From Dictyostelium discoideum (taxonomy: Eukaryota): 64,000 bases of DNA. Both the position numbers and the translations under genes were made by a program. Below are positions 15,138 through 37,858 of this stretch, in pieces (positions within the stretch are counted from its first letter, which is position 1; each line of letters begins with the position of its first letter). A model generated the notes under the pieces. That model did no database searches and had not been told where the DNA came from. It saw only the letters and a program-made list of their open reading frames with translations. The DNA lies in the NCBI GenBank assembly GCA_000004695.1, contig CM000151.3, positions 2,848,001 through 2,912,000 on the forward strand, written 5' to 3'.

Positions 15138-15343
15138 TTAGGATTTAAATATGTTAATGACTCTTGTTATTCTACTTCTACAAATTGGGCACTTTTTTAA
15201 TTTTACTGAACATAATGAACAACAACTTAAATGACCACATTCTAAAAAAACAGTATTAATTTCGTTATCCATACAAACTGTACAAAGATCTTTTGATTCA
15301 TCAGACCCATTATTATTATTATTCCTTTTAGTTGTGCTACTAC

Positions 15344-15408
<65 letters not shown>

Positions 15409-15469
15409 CTACTACCATTTGATGTAGTTTGATGTGTTTCTTTAATGTTACAATTATTATTATTACTAC

Positions 15470-15550
<81 letters not shown>

Positions 15551-17002
15551 CATTTTCATCTTCAGAATTTAAAAATGTTGGTAAATTATCAAAATTTTCA
15601 TCTGAAACTCTTTCTTTTTCTTTTTCTTTATCTTTACCTTTTTCTTTTTCTTTTTCTTTTTTATCTTTATCATTTTTAAAAGATGATTTTCTAGATTTGG
15701 TTGGTGATTTATTTGTATCACTACTATTACTCGAATCAATAGTGAAAAATGAACTTGGTGATGTTGAAAATGTATTTATATTATTATTATTATTATTTTG
15801 ATTATTATTTTGATTATTATTATTTTCATCAGGTAAAATTAAAATTGGATTATTATTAATTATTGATAATGGTGGTAATAAATCATTATCTAAAGGACCA
15901 ATTGGATATTTTAATTTTGAAGAAAAAGATAAAATAAAAGATAAAATACTTTTAAAAATATCGGGTGGTTTTTGAAGTGTTAAACCACCATTGATTGAAG
16001 AAGTCACTGGATAGAGTAAACAATGTCTAATATGATTTGTAGAATCAACAAAAGTGATAGCGAATGCACCAACAATAGTTTTACTACAACGTAATAAATA
16101 ATAACCAACTTGTTGTCTCGATAACAATTGTGTTGCCTCTATACCAGATATGAAACCACTGAATATCTTTGAGTTTATAACATCTTGAAATATACCAAGT
16201 GATACAGGTAATGCTCCAAACCATTTTATAAATACTGATAGCTTGAATGGTGTAACATAACCATCCCGGGTGAAATCTAATGTATATCTTAAACTTGATT
16301 CATAAGCTAATATCTCCTTATTGAAAAACTTTTGAAATCCTTTAAAAAATATTGACCATGGCACAAATGTTATTTTATTTCCACCAAATTGATTCCACAA
16401 TACTTTTGCTTCATTACTTAATAATTCATATGGATTATAATTATTATTATTATTATTATTATTTTCATTATTCAATGATGACGATGATGGTGGAAATAAT
16501 GCTAATAATTGGTCAATTGATTGTTTTAAAATTGAATCAACTTTTAAAAGATTATTTATAATTAAATTTGAAGTAAAAGAATTTGTTGAATTGATTGTTG
16601 TGTTAAAGGTGATTGTGGTTGGAGGTGATGAAAGTTTTAATAAAAGTTGTTGAAATTGAATTAAATCTTGATAAAGTTTACATATTGAAAATATAAATGA
16701 TTCAATACCATATTCAATGATTTTAATTTCACTACAAATTATTTTTGAATCTGATAGATTGAAATTGATTTTATTTTCATTTTCATAATGAATATAATTA
16801 ACTAATGATGTTTTTGTAAATTGTATTGTATTATTTAATTCTGAAAATTCTTGATCATTTAAAACCGTTTTTGATTTAAAATTATTTAAATCTTTAATAA
16901 TTTTATCAATAATTGTAATTAATTCACTTATATTATTTTTATATGATATTGTTGTTATTGTAGTTGTTGTAGTTGTTGTGGTTGTACCATTATTGTTACT
17001 AT

Positions 17003-17033
<31 letters not shown>

Positions 17034-17135
17034 GTTATTATTATTATTATTAATGTTGTTATTGTGAGCTAGTAAAGGAATACTTAAAAATGAAGGAGCA
17101 TTTGATTTATTACTTGTTATTGTGGCTCTATTCAT
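15138..17135 (-). CDS. cblA: Cbl-like E3 ubiquitin ligase: TKB domain (4H / EF-hand / variant SH2) plus C-terminal C3HC4 RING
   Basis: The centre matches the Cbl TKB domain. VLWNQFGGNKITFVPWSIFFKGF compares with Cbl EFWRKAFGEKTIVPWKSF. The variant SH2 FSGFISGIEATQLLSRQQVGYYLLRCSKTIVGAFAITFVDSTNHIRHCLL compares with Cbl [37 protein letters not shown]. The C-terminal RING is CTVCMDNEINTVFLECGHLSCCSLCSVKLKKCPICR. Dictyostelium has a single described Cbl homolog, so I used cblA, but the symbol is an inference. The ORF track starts at 17264, but those 43 codons lie on a (T6-11 G)n microsatellite. The first ATG after that tract (17135, MNRATITSNK) is the likelier start. Confidence 0.72.
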
Positions 17136-17484
17136 TTTTTTTTTTTCTTTTTTTGTTTTTTTTTTGTTTTTTTTTTGTTTTTTTTTTTTTTGTTTTTTTT
17201 TTTTTGTTTTTTTTTTTGTTTTTTTTTTTGTTTTTTTTGATTTAAAAATTAATTCATGGTACAAAAATAAATGAACAAATAAATAAATAATAAATAATAA
17301 CTACAACCCAACACAAAGAAGAAGAAAAAAAAAAAAAAAAAGAAAAAAATTTTCTGTGTAATTTGATAATAAAAAAAAAAACTTTTTTTTAGAATTGGTC
17401 AATTTGGTGTTACGCACACTTTTTTTGATTTGAAAATTAATCAGCTAAAAAAAATTCAAAAAAATTTCTGATTGTTTGCTTAAT

Positions 17485-18811: not shown

Positions 18812-20857
18812 TTAAGAATTTGGTTGATACATTGGATTATCACCATTTCCAGTTGGATTTTCATATAAAGGATTTGAAGTTAAAGATGCAAGAGAATTAT
18901 TATTTGAAGCAGCCCATGCATCATAACCTTTTTTAGAAGCAACTACAATAGCAATGGCAACTACAGCAGCAGCGACTGAAACACCAACAATAACAGAGGT
19001 TGATATGATTGCAGCGGGTTTACAAACAAAAGGTTTTGGATCAAAATCAACCGATTCACATCTTCCTGGTTCAGTTGAAGTAGCATTTATACAAACACCA
19101 GTTTCACATTTTGGATTTGAAGGTATACAAACTTTATCGAAAACAATACAACCAGTCACATCGGAACATTGAGAAATTTGACAAAATGAAGGTGAGTCAC
19201 AAATACGATCTTTTAATTTACATTCACCAGCATCACAATAACCAATTAGACAATTACCTTTGTTTGGACAAATTTTTGGTACACCAACACAGCCAATATC
19301 AGCATTACAAGTATAATCCATACATGGATTGGTGATATTACATGATAGAGGTGTGTGAATACAACTACCATTGTTCATACATTGATCAATGGTACATAAA
19401 TTACCATCATCACAATTGGATTCAATTGGAATACATTTTCCATTATTACATTTGGTACAACCAGAACATTCCATTGGAGTATGTTTAACACTACCAGTTA
19501 TTTTATCACAAATATCGATTGTACATGGATTACCATCATCAATGGTATCAATTGGTAGTGGGGAGCAAACTGGTGGATTTACACTTTGATCACAGTTATT
19601 CTTTTGACATGGGTTTAATTTACAATTACAATTACATTCTGTACTATTTTGAGTGTATGTACCACAAACACCTTTATCAGCGGAGCAAGTTGGAATAACA
19701 CATGGATTGGAGGAGGAAGGGGAAGTACATTTTGGAGTTGCCATACAACCACCATTCTTTGCATTACAACTATAAATTTTACATGGATCTTCACCCAATT
19801 CATTGGAACAATAATCAGCATCCATGCTGGTACATTTACCATTATTACATTCACCAGTTAAACATGGACCAATACAATTTGATTTATATTGACAACCAAG
19901 TTTTGGATCACAACCAGTTAGCGTCATACAATATTTAGATTTATCGGCACATTCTAAATTACCAATTACTTCACATTTACCATTGGTATCTTTTGAACAA
20001 CCAGTGATTACACATTTATTATTTGATGGTTGTGTACAAGTGATATTGGTATGTCTACAATATTTTGAAATTTTATCACCACCTGGAATTGGTAAATTTG
20101 GTAATGGACAACTATCAATGGTGCATGGATCATCGTCATCACAATCAAGGTCTTTATTACAACATGTTGAACCATCACCTTGACAAACACCACAATAATC
20201 AGACCATGCACAAAATGCTTGAATATCAGTTTGAATTTTCATTTTACTATAGGGTGTATGTCTTTCACAATAAAAGAAATCAAAGGAATAGGTTTTGTTA
20301 ACTTGTAAACCCAACTTTGTCAAATCAACAGTACCTCTTCTAGCAGGATGTAAACCACCTAAATCCAAGACCAACTTCTTATCAATAAATACCCAAACAT
20401 CATCATCACCTTCAAATTTAAAAGTTTCAGTACCTTGATAAAAGAATACTGAATTAATCTTTAAACAATAATGAAAGTTATGATAGGCTGTAAAAATTCT
20501 ACCACCATAATAGATTCTATTACTCTCATCAACATCCCAACCTTGATAATCAATTGGAAAGAAATCATCCTTTACAAATGAATAAATATTTGATGATTTA
20601 TCCAATGTTAAATTTAATTTCTTTAATAACATTACATTTTGTGTATGGTTTTTATTAAACCATGTTGGAAATAAATTTAAATTTTTTAATTTACCATTTA
20701 CAAATGGTTTAAAATTTGGATCATTTGATGCTAATGTTGGACTATCACCTTCCAATACATTTTTTATCATTCCAACTGAAATATCACCATAATCTGGTTC
20801 AAAATCACTATTTAATTTTGGTAATTGATCAAAAATTGAACAACTTAATAATAAAAA

Positions 20858-26425: not shown

Positions 26426-27405
26426 TTATTTTTTATTTTTATCCTCCAATAAAGATTTAGTTAATTTTTTTAAAGTTTCAACTTCATTTGGAGTTGATAA
26501 ACCAGATGATTTCCAACGAATTTTACCATCAACAACTAAAAATATATATGATGAATATGGATTTGTAACACCAAAATCTTCAAAAATTGTATTTGATTCT
26601 GAAAAAAAAAAAAAAAAAAAAAAAGATTAGTATTATATAAATTTAAAATAATAATAATAATAATTAATAAAAATAATAATAATTTACTTTTAATTGCCAT
26701 TGGTAAATTATACCAAGATTCTGTAAGATCATTATTCTTTCCTTTACGAGTACTTTTTAAAAGGGGTGATAAAATTTGATAACCTAATTGTGAAACCAAA
26801 AATATACTATGAATATCCAATTGTGGGAATTCCTTTTTAAATGGTTCAGACCAACTTTTTATAAATTTATCAGCATGAAATGGTTTAACTGAAACGATTA
26901 ATAATGATGGATCATTATTATCTTTATTTAAACAATTTGGAAATTCCAATTTATTACCATCCAAATCTTTTGTTTTAATTTGTGGTACAACTTCTGCTTG
27001 TGATTCATTAATTAAATTTGGTGATCCAACAAAAACTTTCATTGTTGGATTTTTCATAAATTCTTTAACATCCCATAAAACACCATCTTCTAATTCTTTT
27101 TTACTTTTTTTTTTTTAAATTTATTTTTTTTTTTTTTTTTTAAAAAAAAACTAACTATTAATATTAATTCAAAAATAATAATTAATAATAATAATTAATT
27201 ATAATAATTACACTCTTCTTTTTTGTTGAGTATCTGCATTTTCTTTATAATATTTAAATGGATTTAAAAAATTTTTCCAAGACGACATATTCCTAATTTG
27301 TTGTTGTTGTTGAAAAATAACATTTTTAGTAGTATTATTTAGTAAACTTTTAGAAACAATTCCATTTAAGGATTTACATGAATTAATTAATCTATTAGTA
27401 ATCAT
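26426..27405 (-). CDS. Mitochondrially targeted thioredoxin-fold protein, possibly ATP10-family (about 260 aa); 3 exons (27212..27405; 26688..27103; 26426..26598)
   Basis: Exon 1 is MITNRLINSCKSLNGIVSKSLLNNTTK.., a presequence-like region. The donor is GTAATT after 27212 (phase 2) and the acceptor aag at 27104-27105. Exon 2 reads KKELEDGVLWDVKEFMKNPTMKVFVGSPNL..SWSEPFKKEFPQLDIHSIFLVSQLGYQ..LPMAIK and ends in phase 1 at a GTAAAT donor after 26688. Exon 3 follows a tttcag acceptor (AG at 26599-26600) and reads SNTIFEDFGVTNPYSSYIFLVVDGKIRWKSSGLSTPNEVETLKKL... The exon lengths 194+416+173 sum to a multiple of 3. The ATP10 assignment rests on motif memory only. Confidence 0.5.
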
Positions 27406-27788: not shown

Positions 27789-29262
27789 TTAAATATTAAT
27801 TGAATTACTATTATAATTTGAACTAAATTCATATTGACCATTTTGATTTATATTTGGTTCAGAATTTTCAGAATCAGAATAATCTGAACTTTCAAAGAAT
27901 TCAATAAGTTCGAAAGCTTTCTTGTAAACATCTTTTGATTGATGCTCTTGAAGATCATAAATGATGGATTCACCTTGCATTTCAGAGATCAAGTTAACGT
28001 ATGGATTAACACCAGTTTTAGTTTTAGTTTTTTCACCTTCTTTAATGATATTGATTAAACCTTCCAAGACGATTTTAAGGATAACTAAATCTTGAGAGTT
28101 TAATAAATCGATAAAATGTTTCAAGATATTGTGACGAACCAAGGTTTGAATTGATTTAGTTGATGAATTATTGGTAGAGTTTGATAAAGCCCAACATGCT
28201 TCACGTTTAATGTCATGTTCACTGTGGGAGAGAAGACTGATCAAGGTTGTCACTGTCTTTGGATTTGATACGACAACATCGATTTGTGATGGTTCACCAG
28301 CGGTGATATTTGATAATGCCCAACATGATTCTTTACGAATGGATTTCTTTTGAACGGCCAAGAGACGAGTGATCAATTCAACACCATTATTATCGATGAC
28401 TATTTGAGTTTGGCTAGATTCACCAGTGACAATATTACCAACGGCACGTAATGCTGGTGTGAAAACGATACTATCTGGATATTCCAATAGTTTGACCAAT
28501 CTTGGTACGACACCACTATCGATGACGGCTTGAATCTTTGTATTTGGACCATCACAGAGGTAAGATAATGCCCAACATAAATCACCATAGATTTCACTTG
28601 GAAGATTTTCAATTCTGATCAACTCGTTGATTGCTGGTAAACATTGACTAACCACAGAGAAATCTGGTTGTGGTTTACCACGACACAAATTTGAAATTGT
28701 CCAGACAACATTTTGAATTAGACCAATTTTACGCTCGGAATTGGCTGAGGTGGTGGTGGCACCATTATCTTCACCATAGTGTAGCAATGGAATTAAAGCA
28801 TTCATTGCACCATATTTCAAGAGATAGTTTCTTGAATCAACTGTATCACCTGCAATATTACCCAATGCCCAAGCACATTGTTCCTTAACTTCATCGGTAG
28901 TTTCTGCACATAATAACTGAATAAAGATTGGTACGGAACCACTTTCCATCACAGTTTGAGTTTGTCTATTATTACCAGATGCAATATTGGTCAATGCCCA
29001 TGCTGATTCAAATTGTACCTTTGGATTATTACATTGTAAGAGTTGATTCAATTTTGGTATAATACCACATTCAATAACTTGATCAATTGGTGGATAAGCA
29101 TGAATTGATAATAACTTTCTAAATTGTACTAATGATGAATAAACATATGCTTGATCGTTTGAATTTAATGCTGTAACTAATCCTGGTAAATTTTTAATCT
29201 ATTAAAAAAAAAAAAAAATAAAAAATAAAAAATAAAAAAAAAAATCGAGAAATTAATATGTG

Positions 29263-29344
<82 letters not shown>

Positions 29345-29605
29345 GATTCTATTATGATTTACCTTATTTTCCATAGTTTCATTTTCATATTTTTGGAATT
29401 GTTCTTGAACTTCTGGTGGAACGATAATTTGATAAGAAGTTGAAGGATTTGGTTGAACGATACCACGTCTCTTTAACATTAACTCTTCTCTAGCATTTTT
29501 TCTAATACCAATTGAGTTTTCTTCTCTCTTTCTTCTTGCTGTTTCACTATCGAGTGATTTTTTAAATTCTTTCTTTCTACTATCTTGTTTATCTCTTGAT
29601 GACAT
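27789..29605 (-). CDS. Importin (karyopherin) alpha, about 550 aa; 2 exons (29363..29605 IBB domain; 27789..29198 ARM repeats)
   Basis: Exon 1 encodes MSSRDKQDSRKKEFKKSLDSETARRKREENSIGIRKNAREELMLKRR (IBB) and ends AAT AAG at a GTAAAT donor. The 164-bp intron carries a long poly-T run. An acceptor taatag at 29199-29200 opens exon 2 with IKNLPGLVTALNSNDQAYVYSSLVQFRKLLSIHAYPPIDQVIECGIIPKL, compare importin-alpha ATTQFRKLLSIERNPPIDEVI. It continues into the ARM-repeat ORF (..ESAWALTNIASG.., ..EQCAWALGNIAGD..). Confidence 0.9.
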
Positions 29606-31173: not shown

Positions 31174-31244
31174 CTAAAATTTTCTTTTTTTAAATGGACC
31201 AGTATCTTCACGAGGATCATCATTTTTATTTCTATTTGTTTCTA

Positions 31245-31278
<34 letters not shown>

Positions 31279-32682
31279 ATTATTATTAAAATTATTATCT
31301 TCATCATCTCCATCAAAAATTAATTCACCATCGTCATATTCAGAGGTATCATATGATTCATCTTCATACTCTTCATCATCAAATGAATGATTTTGAAATG
31401 TAGTTGAAGTTGAGGTGGTTGTAGATGAAGATATGTTATTATTATTATTATTATTGATGTTGTTTTTATTAATAATATTATTAATATTATATTTACTGTT
31501 ATCACTATTATTATTTCCATCACTATTTCCATTATTATTATTATTATTACTATTATTATTGCTATTATTATTATTATTGCTATTATTATTATTGCTATTA
31601 TTATTGTTATTATTATTATTGATATTAATATTAATATTATTTTTATTATTATTATTATTATTATTATTAATATCATGATTTCTATTTGATTGTCTTCTTT
31701 GTTGTGGACTTGTTACTTTTTTATCTTTTTTTCTACTTTTTGTAATTCTTTTATCAGATTCAAATAAATTCTTTTTAAATTGATAAAAAAAAGTTAAATC
31801 GTCATTATCTAAATCTTTCTTTTGAATATGAACATTTGTTAACCATTGTAAATTTTTAAAATCGATTTCAATGAAACGTTGATCCAACCGATAATTACCA
31901 GTAATTCCCCATAACCCATATAATCTACCAAAATATTTATCAATTGTCATCCTATGTGATTCAAATTCTTTTAAATTATCATTTATATTTATTATTCTCA
32001 TTTCATCAATACACTTTGAATTTGTATTTGTAGTTGTAGTAGTTGTCATTGTGGCCGTCGTTGCCGTCATCATGGTCGTCGTCATTGTATATTCCTGTAT
32101 ATTACTACTACTACTACTATTACTATTATTATAATTTTGTGAATTTAATGGTGGTGTAGTTGTTGCACTAGATGGTAAACTATTATTATTACAATAATTA
32201 CTTTGATTGTTATTATTTTGATTATTTTGACTATTTTGATTATTTTGATTATTTTGATTATTTTGATTTTGATTTTGATTAACTATTTGAACCATACCAT
32301 TAACATTTTTATAATAATTTGAATAAGGTAATGAGGAACCTGTTTGAGGATCGAATAAAGTTAAAATTGCCCATGATTTAAATTTACCAGTTTGATCAAT
32401 TTCTGAAGGTGTATCTTGTTTTTGAAGATAGTTTAATAGATTATGTTTTTGTTGATTAAATATGGTTAGATCAGGTGTTGAACCAAGATAAGGTGCAGAA
32501 ACAAAAATTGAATAATGTGGTGAACTGAATTGAACTGCAACCATAAATTTAATGCCATATATGTTATTAATTGGATCAAAGTATTCCTTTTTCTTTGAAT
32601 CTGCTATTGTAGTTTTAATAGTGATACAATCAACTATTAAACCAATATGATATGGATTCTTTTGAATTTTAAAATTATTTTG

Positions 32683-32724
<42 letters not shown>

Positions 32725-32733
32725 ATTATTTGA

Positions 32734-32775
<42 letters not shown>

Positions 32776-33195
32776 ACCATTAACTGATGGTCTAAATATA
32801 TCAAATGGTAAATCTCTTTTTGAAAGTTGATCAATTACAATACGTATCTTTTGTACAACCCGACTAATTGTAACTTGAGTAACGTTAAACATTTTACTAA
32901 TGTGTGTTGTGCTTGATCCTGCTTTACTAAATGCTAAATATAATAATAATTTATCGAAATTATTGAATTTATTCTTTTTGAAATCACTAAAATAATGTTT
33001 ACAAACTTCACATAATACCAAAATTTCCCTCTCTGTAAAATTTATAATTTCATTAAAACTATTCTCTTGTTTTAATTTTTTAAATATATTTGAATATTCT
33101 TCAATATTTAATTCTGAATCTTCACAATTATTATTATTTTGATTATTTTGATTATTTTGATTATCATCACTATAATATTCATCATCTTCTGAAAA

Positions 33196-33264
<69 letters not shown>

Positions 33265-33402
33265 ATTATTATTATTGTTATTATTATTATTATTATTATT
33301 ATTAAATGATGATTTTGAATTTAATGTTGGTGAAGTTGATAAAGGTGTTGTTGATGCTTTTCCTTCAATATATTGTTTCTTTTTATCTAAATATTCAACC
33401 AA
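31174..33402 (-). CDS. N-rich low-complexity protein containing a Harbinger (PIF/HARBI1-type) transposase-derived HTH plus DDE_Tnp_4 nuclease core
   Basis: The N-terminal HTH LLLYLAFSKAGSSTTHISKMFNVTQVTISRVVQKI matches HARBI1 LLVALRFLASGSFQ..GISQPTVSR. HIGLIVDCITIK matches (V)IGAIDGTHIPI, the first Asp. YFDPINNIYGIKFMVAVQ...YLGSTPDLTIFNQ matches YVNRKGFHSINVQ..WPGSxHDSRIF, the second Asp. MTIDKYFGRLYGLWGI matches RNVIERTFGLLKARF. The third acidic residue is D where E is expected. The domains are interrupted by long (AAT)n-encoded poly-N tracts, with no flanking TIRs or TSD. The 5' end is unclear: the first in-frame codon is TTG, and an ATG-initiated poly-N ORF (33453..33647) lies just upstream in another frame. 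Confidence 0.62.
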
Positions 33403-33533
33403 TTCTCCAATATTTTTGGCAATATCGGGTTTACTAAATTGAGTTTGTGTTTTTATTGGTTGATACTTTGAGGGTTTACTATTTGGTTTTGGATCTTGGG
33501 TGTTTTATATCCATTATAATTGTCTTTATTGGA

Positions 33534-33623
<90 letters not shown>

Positions 33624-33802
33624 AGTACTATTAATATTATTATTCATATTTTTTAAATTATTACTATTATTGCTATAGTAATATTTTAATTTTTAAATTG
33701 TAAATCTATTTTTTTTATTTTAAATTTATATATAAAATATATAAATTATTATTATTTGGTTATTGTTTGTTTTTTTTATTTTTTTGGTTTTGGTTTTTTT
33801 CA

Positions 33803-35210: not shown

Positions 35211-35823
35211 ATGTTTAAATCTTTTGATGGATTAAAATTATCGAATTCAGAGTTAGAGGGAAGGTATATTATAGCAAATAGAGATATTGACATTGGAGAG
35301 AGTATATTAAAATGTAAATCATATTTTGCAGTTACATGTGAAGATTTTAAAAAGAATAGTTGTTACAATTGTATAAAGTTAATTAAATCACCATCACCTC
35401 AACAAGTACCAAGATGTTTTGGATGTAATGAAGTTTGGTATTGTAGTGAAAAATGTAAACAAGATAATCAAGCAAAACATCAACATTATGAATGTGCATT
35501 TTTCAACAATATAAAATCACCAAAATTAATTCAAAATTCAAAACTCGATTTCGATTCATACTCTGAAATCAGAATAATACTTGGTTTACTCTCAAGATAT
35601 TATCAAGATAAATTATTAAATAATAAATTCAATTCATCAATAATAATAAATAATCAACAAGATGATGAAGAAGATTTTATAAAAGATACATTGGATGGTG
35701 TATTAGATTTAGTAGAAAATGATATAAATGAAGAAACAAATAGTGTAGCAAAAGAATATATTGATAATATTATTGAATATATTATAAATATATTAAAATT
35801 AACAATAAATAATAATAGTAATG

Positions 35824-35913
<90 letters not shown>

Positions 35914-36452
35914 TTGAAGAATTAATTAAATTAATTAGACCATTAATTCAAAAAGTTAGATGTAATCAATTTGGAATTTGGACAAAGAATGATAAATGTA
36001 TTGGTATGGCAGTATCACCAAGTAGTAGTTATTTTAATCATTCATGTATACCAAATTGTGAATCGGTTAGAGATGGTAGTGATATGACATTTAAATCATT
36101 ATTTCCAATTAAAAAAGGTGACCAAATTAATATCTCTTATTTGGCATTAGATAAATCAACTAAAAGACGTAGAGATTATTTGAAATTTGGTTACTACTTT
36201 CATTGTCAATGTCCAAGATGTAATTCAACAGATATTGATCCAACTGGTAAATTAGAGGATTCATTAGATAATTGGATTTCAAAATTTTATTGCCATCAAA
36301 AGAAATGTACAGGTTTATATTATTCAAAATTAAAATTATCACTACAATCATTAACCAACATTGATAATCATGAAATTCAATTATCATGTTCAACTTGTAA
36401 TGATCAATTAATTGTTAATTCAAATTTTTATTTAAATAAACCAAATTATTAA
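35211..36452 (+). CDS. SET and MYND domain (SMYD-like) protein, 413 aa
   Basis: MYND zinc finger CYNCIKL..CFGCNEVWYCSEKCKQDNQAKHQHYEC. The split SET domain ends ..RCNQFGIWTKNDKCIGMAVSPSSSYFNHSCIPNCESV..ISY, followed by a post-SET Cys cluster (FHCQCPRC). A poly-N insert lies inside the SET-I region. A tandem paralog follows. Confidence 0.8.
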
Positions 36453-36697: not shown

Positions 36698-37858
36698 ATG
36701 TTTAAATCTTTTAATGGATTAGAATTAAAAAGTTCAGAGAATGAAGGTCGTTATTTAATAGCAACTCGTGATATTCAAATTGGAGAAGATTTATTAAAAT
36801 GTAAATCATATTTTGCAGTTACATCAGAAACTTTAAAAACAACATCATGTTTTAATTGTATTAAACAATTACCATCAGTTATTAAATTATCATTAAAATG
36901 TAATCAATGTAATGAAATTTGGTATTGTAATGAACAATGTAAAAATGAAAATATTAATAAACATCAACATTATGAATGTAAATTTTATAAAAAATTAAAA
37001 TCACCAAAATTAAAAGTTTATCCAAATTTTGATATTGAAACATTTACAGAAATTAGAATGATCGTTGGTTTGTTATCAAGATATTATCAAGATATTTTAT
37101 TAAATAATAAATTTATTGAACAACAATTAAATAACAACAATAATAATAATAATGATAATGAACAATTAACAAATACATTAGATGATGTTTTTGATTTAGT
37201 AGAAAATCAAGTTACAGAAGAATCAAATCCAGCAGCAAAAGAAAGAATTGATTCAATCGTTGAATTTATAAGTGAATTGTTTAATTTAGTATTATTAGGG
37301 TCAACAACAACAAAATCAATAATTAATAATGATGATAAAATTGAAATGATTAGGAAAATTAATGAAAAAAGTAGATCAATTATACATAAAACTAGATGTA
37401 ATCAATTTGGAATTTGGACAAAGAATGATAAGTGTATTGGTGTTGCAGTATCACCAAGTAGTAGTTATTTTAATCATTCTTGTATACCAAATTGTACAGA
37501 TGTTAGAGATGGTAGTAATATGACATTTAAATCATTATATCCAATTAAAAAGGGTGACCAATTGACAATATCTTATATTGAATTAGATCAACCAATACAA
37601 GATAGAAAAGATGAATTAAAGTATGGTTATTACTTTGATTGTATTTGTCCAAGATGTAATGGTGATTCAAATTCAATTGATTCAATGGATAATTGGATTT
37701 CAAAGTTTTATTGTTCTCAAAAGAAATGTACAGGTTTATATTATTCAAAACCAATGATACCAATTTTAAATACATTAACTTCAAATCATGAAATTCAATT
37801 ATCTTGTTCAAATTGTAATAATATTAATATAGTTACACCTTCTTTTTTTAATAAATAA
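36698..37858 (+). CDS. SET and MYND domain (SMYD-like) protein, 386 aa, tandem paralog of 35211..36452
   Basis: Same architecture and collinear with its neighbour: MFKSFNGLELKSSENEGRYLIATRDIQIGE..; MYND CFNCIKQ..CNQCNEIWYCNEQCKNENINKHQHYEC; NHSCIPNCTDV; post-SET CICPRCN. Confidence 0.8.
   Translation: MFKSFNGLELKSSENEGRYLIATRDIQIGEDLLKCKSYFAVTSETLKTTSCFNCIKQLPSVIKLSLKCNQCNEIWYCNEQCKNENINKHQHYECKFYKKLKSPKLKVYPNFDIETFTEIRMIVGLLSRYYQDILLNNKFIEQQLNNNNNNNNDNEQLTNTLDDVFDLVENQVTEESNPAAKERIDSIVEFISELFNLVLLGSTTTKSIINNDDKIEMIRKINEKSRSIIHKTRCNQFGIWTKNDKCIGVAVSPSSSYFNHSCIPNCTDVRDGSNMTFKSLYPIKKGDQLTISYIELDQPIQDRKDELKYGYYFDCICPRCNGDSNSIDSMDNWISKFYCSQKKCTGLYYSKPMIPILNTLTSNHEIQLSCSNCNNINIVTPSFFNK

Follow-up and report, generated by a model that had tools for sequence, protein, structure and literature searches.

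The gene described here lies in a 64,000-nucleotide stretch of Dictyostelium discoideum DNA (assembly GCA_000004695.1, contig CM000151.3, positions 2,848,001 to 2,912,000 of the forward strand), which at its full length is referred to as the window. It occupies positions 31174-33647 on the reverse strand and encodes a product of about 824 residues, 29.7 % of which are asparagine. With a probability of roughly 85 % we regard it as a host gene that was recruited from a transposase of the PIF/Harbinger (DDE_Tnp_4) superfamily and not as a live transposon. An initial annotation, made from the letters of the window alone, had already read it as a domesticated transposase, and this reading is borne out by the lack of terminal inverted repeats (TIRs), a single copy in the window, conserved microsynteny, and a ratio of nonsynonymous to synonymous substitution (dN/dS) of 0.07–0.09. 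The PIF-derived insect genes DPLG, APLG, LPLG, and BPLG were called by synteny, low dN/dS, single copy, and the absence of TIRs and target site duplications (TSDs) (PMC9710019). It is because synteny, purifying selection, missing TIRs, and a single window copy follow those criteria (PMC9710019) that the gene is called domesticated here.

Descent from a PIF/Harbinger transposase is established by sequence comparison, although the standard domain search hardly detects it. The initial annotation had proposed a HMMER search against DDE_Tnp_4 (PF13359) and HTH_Tnp_4 as a check, which by itself came out weak: the raw open reading frame (ORF) does not match DDE_Tnp_4 and reaches HTH_Tnp_4 only at E 0.3. 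When the poly-asparagine (poly-N) tracts are excised, HTH_Tnp_4 improves to E 0.016 and DDE_Tnp_4 appears at E 2e-4, its 21.5 bits staying under the 24.8-bit cut-off and covering profile positions 1-69 of 158 only. The orthologues of D. citrinum and D. firmibasis show a like behaviour in Pfam, with poly-N-free DDE_Tnp_4 scores of 21.5-22.6 bits overall (E 1-2e-4). The homology is nevertheless secure because phmmer, hhalign, and scans of the top relatives agree. A phmmer search run exhaustively over 1.8 billion representative proteins, with window 31723-33117 (reverse strand) as query and a threshold of E <= 1e-3, returned 138 relatives of 370-440 residues with about 30–35 % identity and a best E of 5.3e-21. 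Most of them align in three collinear stretches, namely the helix-turn-helix (HTH), the core, and the C-terminus, and all ten of the ten top relatives scanned exceed the Pfam gathering score for DDE_Tnp_4. Aligning a profile of the Dictyostelium orthologues to a 35-homologue profile with hhalign gave a probability of 100 % and E 3.4e-41 over 306 columns.

Other searches added little. Sequence searches of the PDB, with the single sequence and with the profile, found no relative, and scans of PHROGs and NCBIfam gave nothing relevant. Word-indexed homologue searches yielded 0 and 2 matches and are uninformative, as the collection lacks even the annotated orthologues of this gene. Likewise, the missing of dictyostelid relatives from the phmmer result does not mean absence, since the collections are without these poly-N-rich proteins. 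The annotated orthologues of 818-932 residues are missing from a 15-billion-protein collection that does include the less repetitive proteins encoded next to them; it seems that Dictyostelium proteins very rich in poly-N are lacking there or were filtered out, so that dictyostelid relatives are under-reported.

The phmmer relatives (P0001-P0138) form a compact DDE_Tnp_4 clade that, judging by its sequences, is apparently undescribed. Its best members come mostly from environmental eukaryotic contigs or transcripts of 1.2-2.7 kb and from Monocercomonoides exilis; the nearest homologues do not follow species relationships, and none is annotated as HARBI1. The motifs of these relatives read IGLLVDSTS; WDxKNxIYALKKEVAV...PHYALF...GSxHD; WAxLxDKGYxGP...RRIxPxK; and RVPVExFFGR..LW...LLTNEHI, and as conserved motifs of its own the clade carries TNFxExE, RRGPxPK, WDxKNxIYALKKEVAV, LLTNEHI, and a KR-rich C-terminal tail. 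The Dictyostelium protein shares with it 30–35 % identity over the HTH, core, and C-terminal bundle, together with the TNF-E-E, WDxKNxIYALKKEVAV, GSxHD, FFGR..LW, and LLTNEHI motifs. In contrast to the Dictyostelium protein, the clade members are compact (370-440 residues), with DKGY and R(3)E in canonical form and the KR-rich tail at their end. Neither TIRs nor a Myb ORF were found in the contexts of two distant homologues, P0149 on a 5-kb metagenome contig and P0010 from Monocercomonoides.

The non-repetitive blocks of the Dictyostelium protein are the HTH, an RNase-H-like DDE core, and a C-terminal helical bundle, parted by (AAT)n-encoded tracts. The initial annotation had described both the poly-N inserts between the domains and four motif blocks; the inserts are there as stated, and so are the four blocks, in the given order and aligned to conserved columns of real DDE_Tnp_4 proteins. 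The parts of the protein are as follows.

33358 to 33512, reverse strand: basic N-terminal block GYKTPKIPKPNSKPSKYQPIKTQTQFSKPDIAKNIGELVEYLDKKKQYIEGK; conserved, without a Pfam match, under purifying selection.
33196 to 33303, reverse strand: poly-N tract 1, (AAT)n-encoded; its length differs between species.
32776 to 33117, reverse strand: helical N-terminal region of DNA-binding type, containing the HTH core LLLYLAFSKAGSSTTHISKMFNVTQVTISRV at 32857-32949.
32674 to 32775, reverse strand: poly-N tract 2, separating the HTH from strand beta1 of the DDE core.
32281 to 32673, reverse strand: N-terminal part of the DDE/RNase-H-like core (beta1-beta5), defined by DDE_Tnp_4 positions 1-69, the alignments, and the strands and helices of an AlphaFold2 model; it holds D258, K285, D311, and D351.
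32014 to 32280, reverse strand: low-complexity Q/N/S/T insert of about 90 residues, between beta5 and the helix of the third catalytic residue; predicted local distance difference test (pLDDT) below 50.
31717 to 32013, reverse strand: C-terminal part of the core plus helical bundle, HRMTIDKYFGRL with D488 (31939-31941), and WLTNVHI; the most constrained block.
31423 to 31641, reverse strand: C-terminal poly-N/S tracts; length highly variable between species.
31297 to 31383, reverse strand: acidic tail FDDEEYEDESYDTSEYDDGELIFDGDDED; conserved.
31177 to 31200, reverse strand: C-terminal basic motif GPFKKRKF, conserved in D. discoideum, D. cf. discoideum, D. citrinum, and D. firmibasis, and KKRKL in D. 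dimigraforme.

The four or five Asn-rich tracts are placed in surface loops and linkers and differ widely in length among the orthologues; where the Dictyostelium protein has the Q/N/S/T insert of about 90 residues, the homologues have about 20. The AlphaFold2 model (predicted template modelling score 0.75, 238 residues with a pLDDT of at least 90) matches DDE transposases and integrases. The terminal GPFKKRKF is a putative nuclear localisation signal. The basic N-terminal block, the acidic tail, and the terminal KKRK are conserved lineage-specific modules that the protein has gained.

Set against the family signature D..K..D..D..P..R(3)E, the catalytic core retains D258, K285, D311, D351, and R484, but it has D488 for the Glu, no Pro, and an interrupted DKGY.

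First D, reverse strand: D258 at 32629-32631, in IGLIVDC.
K, reverse strand: K285, the K position of the family.
D of GSxHD, reverse strand: D311 at 32470-32472, in YLGSTPD.
D of DKGY, reverse strand: D351 at 32350-32352, in WAILTLFDP...Y, a degenerate DKGY.
P of beta5, reverse strand: conserved Pro, absent in the Dictyostelium protein.
R(3)E, reverse strand: R484 and D488, the latter at 31939-31941, in HRMTIDKYFGR, with Asp in place of Glu.

All acidic positions of the family are thereby occupied, and D258, D311, D351, and D488 are invariant among the orthologues. D488, in RMTIDKYFGR, aligns with the near-invariant Glu of RVxVExFFGR, so that the initial annotation was right in placing an Asp where Glu is expected at the third catalytic position. 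Its assignment of the GSTPD Asp as the second catalytic residue is doubtful and probably wrong. The invariant Asp of DKGY is paired by hhalign with D351, which has a 2-residue insertion ahead of it and a 9-residue insertion behind, and in the AlphaFold2 model D311 caps the helix after beta3 whereas D351 comes after beta4. It is probably D351, in the degenerate DKGY, and not D311 that represents the canonical second catalytic Asp. We favour D351 because it follows beta4, where the second Asp of RNase-H-like DDE enzymes is located, and because the IS4/IS5 ‘N3’ motif DxG(Y/F) carries a catalytic Asp (D161 in IS10, D193 in IS903).

The gene is shared among closely related species. Orthologous loci were fetched via the neighbouring proteins, and intact, syntenic, single-exon orthologues of 747-932 residues occur in six other assemblies that include four named species. 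None of the orthologues is annotated with a Pfam domain. Besides the D. discoideum assembly GCA_054883475.1 (L001, treated below) they comprise:

L002, D. cf. discoideum: 829 residues.
L003:4649-6892, D. discoideum, another isolate (GCA_054859355.1): 747 residues, ending inside the C-terminal poly-N tract.
L004, D. firmibasis: 932 residues.
L005, D. citrinum: 818 residues.
L009, D. dimigraforme: 818 residues.

The order SET/MYND, gene, importin-alpha, ATP10 is found in two further D. discoideum assemblies, D. cf. discoideum, D. citrinum, D. dimigraforme, and D. firmibasis. The gene has occupied this place, between a SET/MYND gene and importin-alpha, since before the split of D. discoideum, D. 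citrinum, D. dimigraforme, and D. firmibasis. The synteny that the initial annotation had proposed to test held in these species and was not found in D. purpureum and P. violaceum. There the importin-alpha loci have a common arrangement of their own, with Skp1 and small unannotated genes upstream, and the block of SET/MYND, SET/MYND, and transposase-derived gene may be a clade-specific insertion or rearrangement.

Selection on the gene is evident from its coding sequence. Six blocks are near-perfectly conserved among the orthologues, namely the basic N-terminus, HTH, DDE core, C-terminal bundle, acidic tail, and GPFKKRKF. Nei-Gojobori estimates over about 410 codons of the conserved blocks, with D. 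discoideum as the reference, gave a dN/dS of 0.087 for D. citrinum (dS 0.32, Fisher p 8e-27), 0.074 for D. firmibasis (dS 0.65, Fisher p 7e-47), and 0.029 for D. cf. discoideum, the Fisher p over the three comparisons ranging from 8e-10 to 7e-47. The lowest values, 0.015-0.02, belong to the C-terminal block with the catalytic helix. The non-repetitive blocks are under strong purifying selection. In the insect PIF-derived genes dN/dS is 0.04-0.33, compared to 0.07-0.09 for the Dictyostelium gene (PMC9710019).

In the window itself the gene is split into two reading frames. The initial annotation had given its span as 31174-33647, which indeed delimits a real single-exon gene, as the 824-codon coding sequence (CDS) of L001 demonstrates, but had overlooked a frameshift within it.

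31174 to 33647, reverse strand: whole gene, a single-exon CDS of about 824 codons in other assemblies, split here by a 1-nt deletion.
About 33492 to 33493, reverse strand: frameshift site, reading AAGAT-CCAAAACC in the window, with one more A in other assemblies.

On the reverse strand a 742-codon ORF at 31174-33402 has its first ATG not before codon 171, and a 64-codon, ATG-initiated ORF at 33453-33647 lies a short way upstream in a different frame. They are taken as one gene because the near-identical L001, which has 4 mismatches to the window across 21 kb, carries here one continuous CDS (2475 nt, 824 codons) that differs inside the gene solely by one extra A and is otherwise 100 % identical. 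At 33492/33493 the sequence is AAGATACCAAAACC in D. discoideum L001, D. cf. discoideum L002, and D. firmibasis L004, and AAGCTACCAAAACC, with the same A present, in D. discoideum L003; D. citrinum and D. dimigraforme keep the frame there (...KIPKP... and ...KIPRP..., respectively). The missing A is present in all other Dictyostelium assemblies whose nucleotides were compared at the site. We treat the deletion as either an error of the reference or a very recent strain lesion and not as a property of the gene. An intron that would restore the frame of the window could be drawn in only two GT-AG models (134 nt and 46 nt), neither of whose products is on record, and it was rejected in favour of the 1-nt deletion because the exon is uninterrupted in every other assembly. 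A misassembled chimera, which the initial annotation had named as a potential refutation, is excluded by the same contiguous ORF in six independent assemblies.

Two hallmarks of an autonomous Harbinger element are missing, namely TIRs in the flanks and a second Myb/SANT-like ORF. Inverted repeats around the gene consist only of low-complexity (AAT)n/(ATT)n or A/T runs, and a search between the two 1.5-kb flanks for TIRs outside low complexity found 0 candidates, with 0.3 expected from shuffles; the lack of termini reported in the initial annotation therefore stands. The 1.5-kb flanks hold no ORF of more than 100 residues except low-complexity artefacts. A Myb/SANT partner, which the initial annotation had suggested looking for nearby, was found neither in the flanks nor among the neighbours and the scanned window ORFs, and the other large window ORFs scanned contain no Myb, SANT, or MADF domain. 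One copy of the gene is present in the 64-kb window and one in each 21-kb syntenic locus.

Some observations weigh against the reading as a host gene. The copy count covers the window and the syntenic loci, and further copies or TIR-bearing relatives may exist elsewhere. The frame of the window copy breaks after codon 51. The L003 allele is without the acidic tail and the KKRKF motif; the C-terminal modules may be dispensable, the allele may be a natural truncation, or it may reflect an indel error in a microsatellite-like tract. Finally, no orthologue is found beside importin-alpha in D. purpureum (L006) or P. violaceum (L010), a result that concerns that neighbourhood only.

What might such a protein do? 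It would enter the nucleus via its KKRK motif and, by means of the HTH and the transposase fold, bind DNA or a partner that itself binds DNA. By analogy to the plant proteins ALP1 and HDP1 it would then most likely act as a sequence- or partner-directed adaptor of chromatin or transcription, with some residual metal-dependent DDD nuclease activity being possible.

The alternative that fares best takes this last point further: the protein might be a working nuclease or recombinase of a DDD type, recruited for the processing of host DNA, and not a dead adaptor. We hold this to be a live alternative, though the less probable option. The four acidic positions of the family are all Asp and invariant in every orthologue, the exchange of Glu for Asp retains a carboxylate, constraint on the gene is strongest in the helix with D488 (dN/dS 0.015-0.02), and vertebrate HARBI1 keeps its triad too. 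On the other hand, DKGY is split by the insertions of 2 and 9 residues, the conserved Pro of beta5 is gone, and a disordered insert of about 90 residues precedes the catalytic helix. A D/E swap at the third position, as Lohe et al. reportedly found in 1997, inactivates the mariner transposase. Moreover, the whole domain has 95 % column identity, so that the conservation of its acidic residues is little specific. A narrower version, in which an active DDD nuclease would carry out programmed DNA transactions, for instance in transposon control or in processing extrachromosomal or repeat DNA, appears rather improbable. If it were true, the protein would be an amoebozoan counterpart of RAG1, PiggyMac, or Kat1, and the exchange of Glu for Asp a new catalytic variant of the PIF/Harbinger fold.

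It is unlikely that the gene is instead an ancient eukaryotic host gene of the DDE_Tnp_4 kind passed on by vertical descent, such as a true orthologue of HARBI1, and not a domestication within the D. discoideum clade. Such host genes do exist in animals and plants (PMC4671723, PMC5339849, PMC9710019), and the closest relatives of the Dictyostelium protein, at 30–35 % identity, are proteins from eukaryotic transcripts and from Monocercomonoides, which does not point to a known Dictyostelium transposon. An old inheritance, however, fits poorly with its absence beside importin-alpha in D. purpureum and P. violaceum, with their different, Skp1-containing arrangement, and with nearest homologues that do not track species relationships. 

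Still less can be said for a fossil, that is, a decaying or recently immobilised Harbinger copy without a host function. The frameshift of the window copy, Pfam scores under the threshold, and the truncated L003 allele would fit such a copy, but ORFs are intact at the same locus in six other assemblies, and apart from the missing A the window copy matches an intact allele at 100 %. A dN/dS of 0.07-0.09 at a dS of up to 0.65 is far from the value near 1, accompanied by stop codons, that is expected of a fossil, and TIRs are missing as well. That the Harbinger likeness arose by mere chance, from short motifs matching in a protein of low complexity, as the unmatched raw ORF and an empty first word-based homology search could suggest, counts as already refuted by the phmmer result (E 5e-21 over 1.8 billion proteins, in three collinear stretches), the hhalign result (E 3.4e-41), the confident RNase-H-like fold of the AlphaFold2 model, and ten of ten top relatives being DDE_Tnp_4 proteins.

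Domesticated Harbinger transposases of other eukaryotes offer the closest comparison for a recruited host gene. In plants, ALP1/ALP2, HDP1, and PANDA/POW1 resemble the Dictyostelium gene in being derived from DDE_Tnp_4, free of TIRs, conserved across species, and presumably nuclear (PMC4671723, PMC5339849). They are also single-copy and without TSDs, which probably holds for the Dictyostelium gene as well. ALP1 works with Polycomb repressive complex 2 and HDP1 with the IDM1 histone acetyltransferase complex (PMC4671723, PMC5339849). The plant domesticates and the Dictyostelium protein alike keep the transposase fold with altered catalytic motifs, yet ALP1 underwent non-conservative catalytic changes, with DGA instead of DDE (PMC4671723), whereas in the Dictyostelium protein every position still has a carboxylate (D, D, and D, with Glu exchanged for Asp). 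This protein also differs from the plant ones by inserts of poly-N that are large and by modules of its own at both termini, and no Myb-derived partner of the kind that HDP2 or ALP2 represents in plants was found among the scanned window ORFs. Several of the insect genes were co-domesticated with an adjacent MADF gene (PMC9710019), a neighbour that the Dictyostelium locus lacks. As Dictyostelium belongs to a different eukaryotic supergroup, its domestication was almost certainly independent of the plant cases. Orthology to HARBI1 or ALP1 is unlikely, and an independent domestication more likely.

Vertebrate HARBI1 is compact, with about 350 residues and canonical DDE and DxGY motifs, and pairs with the Myb-like partner NAIF1. 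Like the Dictyostelium gene it is a Harbinger-derived host gene with an HTH and a DDE_Tnp_4 core under purifying selection. The Dictyostelium protein is nearer to HARBI1, which keeps its triad, than to ALP1 with its DGA, but the local motifs of the Dictyostelium protein are clearly remodelled. With the transposases of active PIF/Harbinger (PHIS) elements it shares the positions D258, K285, D311, D351, and R484(3)D488. It differs from such elements by the lack of TIRs and of a second ORF, a fixed location, the lost Pro, and the exchange of Glu for Asp.

Our full-text search of the literature found no paper that ties Harbinger or HARBI1 domestication to Dictyostelium and none that reports such a gene in Amoebozoa. 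The transposon families described from Dictyostelium do not, to our knowledge, include Harbinger. Where 836 genomes were surveyed for PHIS transposons, Dictyostelium is named only in the list of those searched (PMC4482050). The gene is probably the first amoebozoan example of a domesticated Harbinger transposase. In principle such a case is unsurprising, as the recruitment of these transposases as host genes is recurrent, with cases in vertebrates, insects, and plants. We know of no established function for HARBI1 to this day, and a strongly constrained example in a haploid, genetically tractable host provides a simple system for studying the role of a domesticated Harbinger transposase and whether any DNA cleavage is left to it. 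There is also a practical warning: poly-N inserts mask the domain from Pfam, which leaves the gene on record without a domain, and proteins of this poly-N-rich kind are missing from large protein collections.

The immediate neighbours of the gene are host genes.

27789 to 29605: importin-alpha.
35211 to 36452, forward strand: SET + zf-MYND gene, one of a tandem pair.
36698 to 37858, forward strand: SET + zf-MYND gene, the other of the tandem pair.

The ORF at 36698-37855 is identical to XP_644411.1 (DDB_G0273589) on chromosome 2 of strain AX4, a protein with two AX4 accessions, which fits the known AX4 duplication on this chromosome. The two SET/MYND paralogues, directly upstream of the transposase-derived gene, have about 79 % nucleotide identity over about 590 nt, and the pair is also found in D. 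citrinum, D. dimigraforme, and D. firmibasis. The presence of a chromatin-type SET/MYND pair beside a domesticated transposase may be coincidental. Other large window ORFs with Pfam matches, all on the reverse strand, are host genes as well, namely an Hsp70 (730-2628), a Cbl-like protein with SH2 and RING domains (15138-17264), a PA14/Dicty_CTDC protein (18812-20770), and ATP10 (26536-27057), none of them transposon-related. On the reverse strand, 46718-61228 is taken up by a giant ORF (4836 codons), preceded immediately upstream, in the same orientation, by three ORFs of 191-359 codons that reach to 63929. In other assemblies the giant ORF and these upstream ORFs (window 46718-63929), on record without Pfam domains, are annotated as one gene of about 5540-5620 residues.

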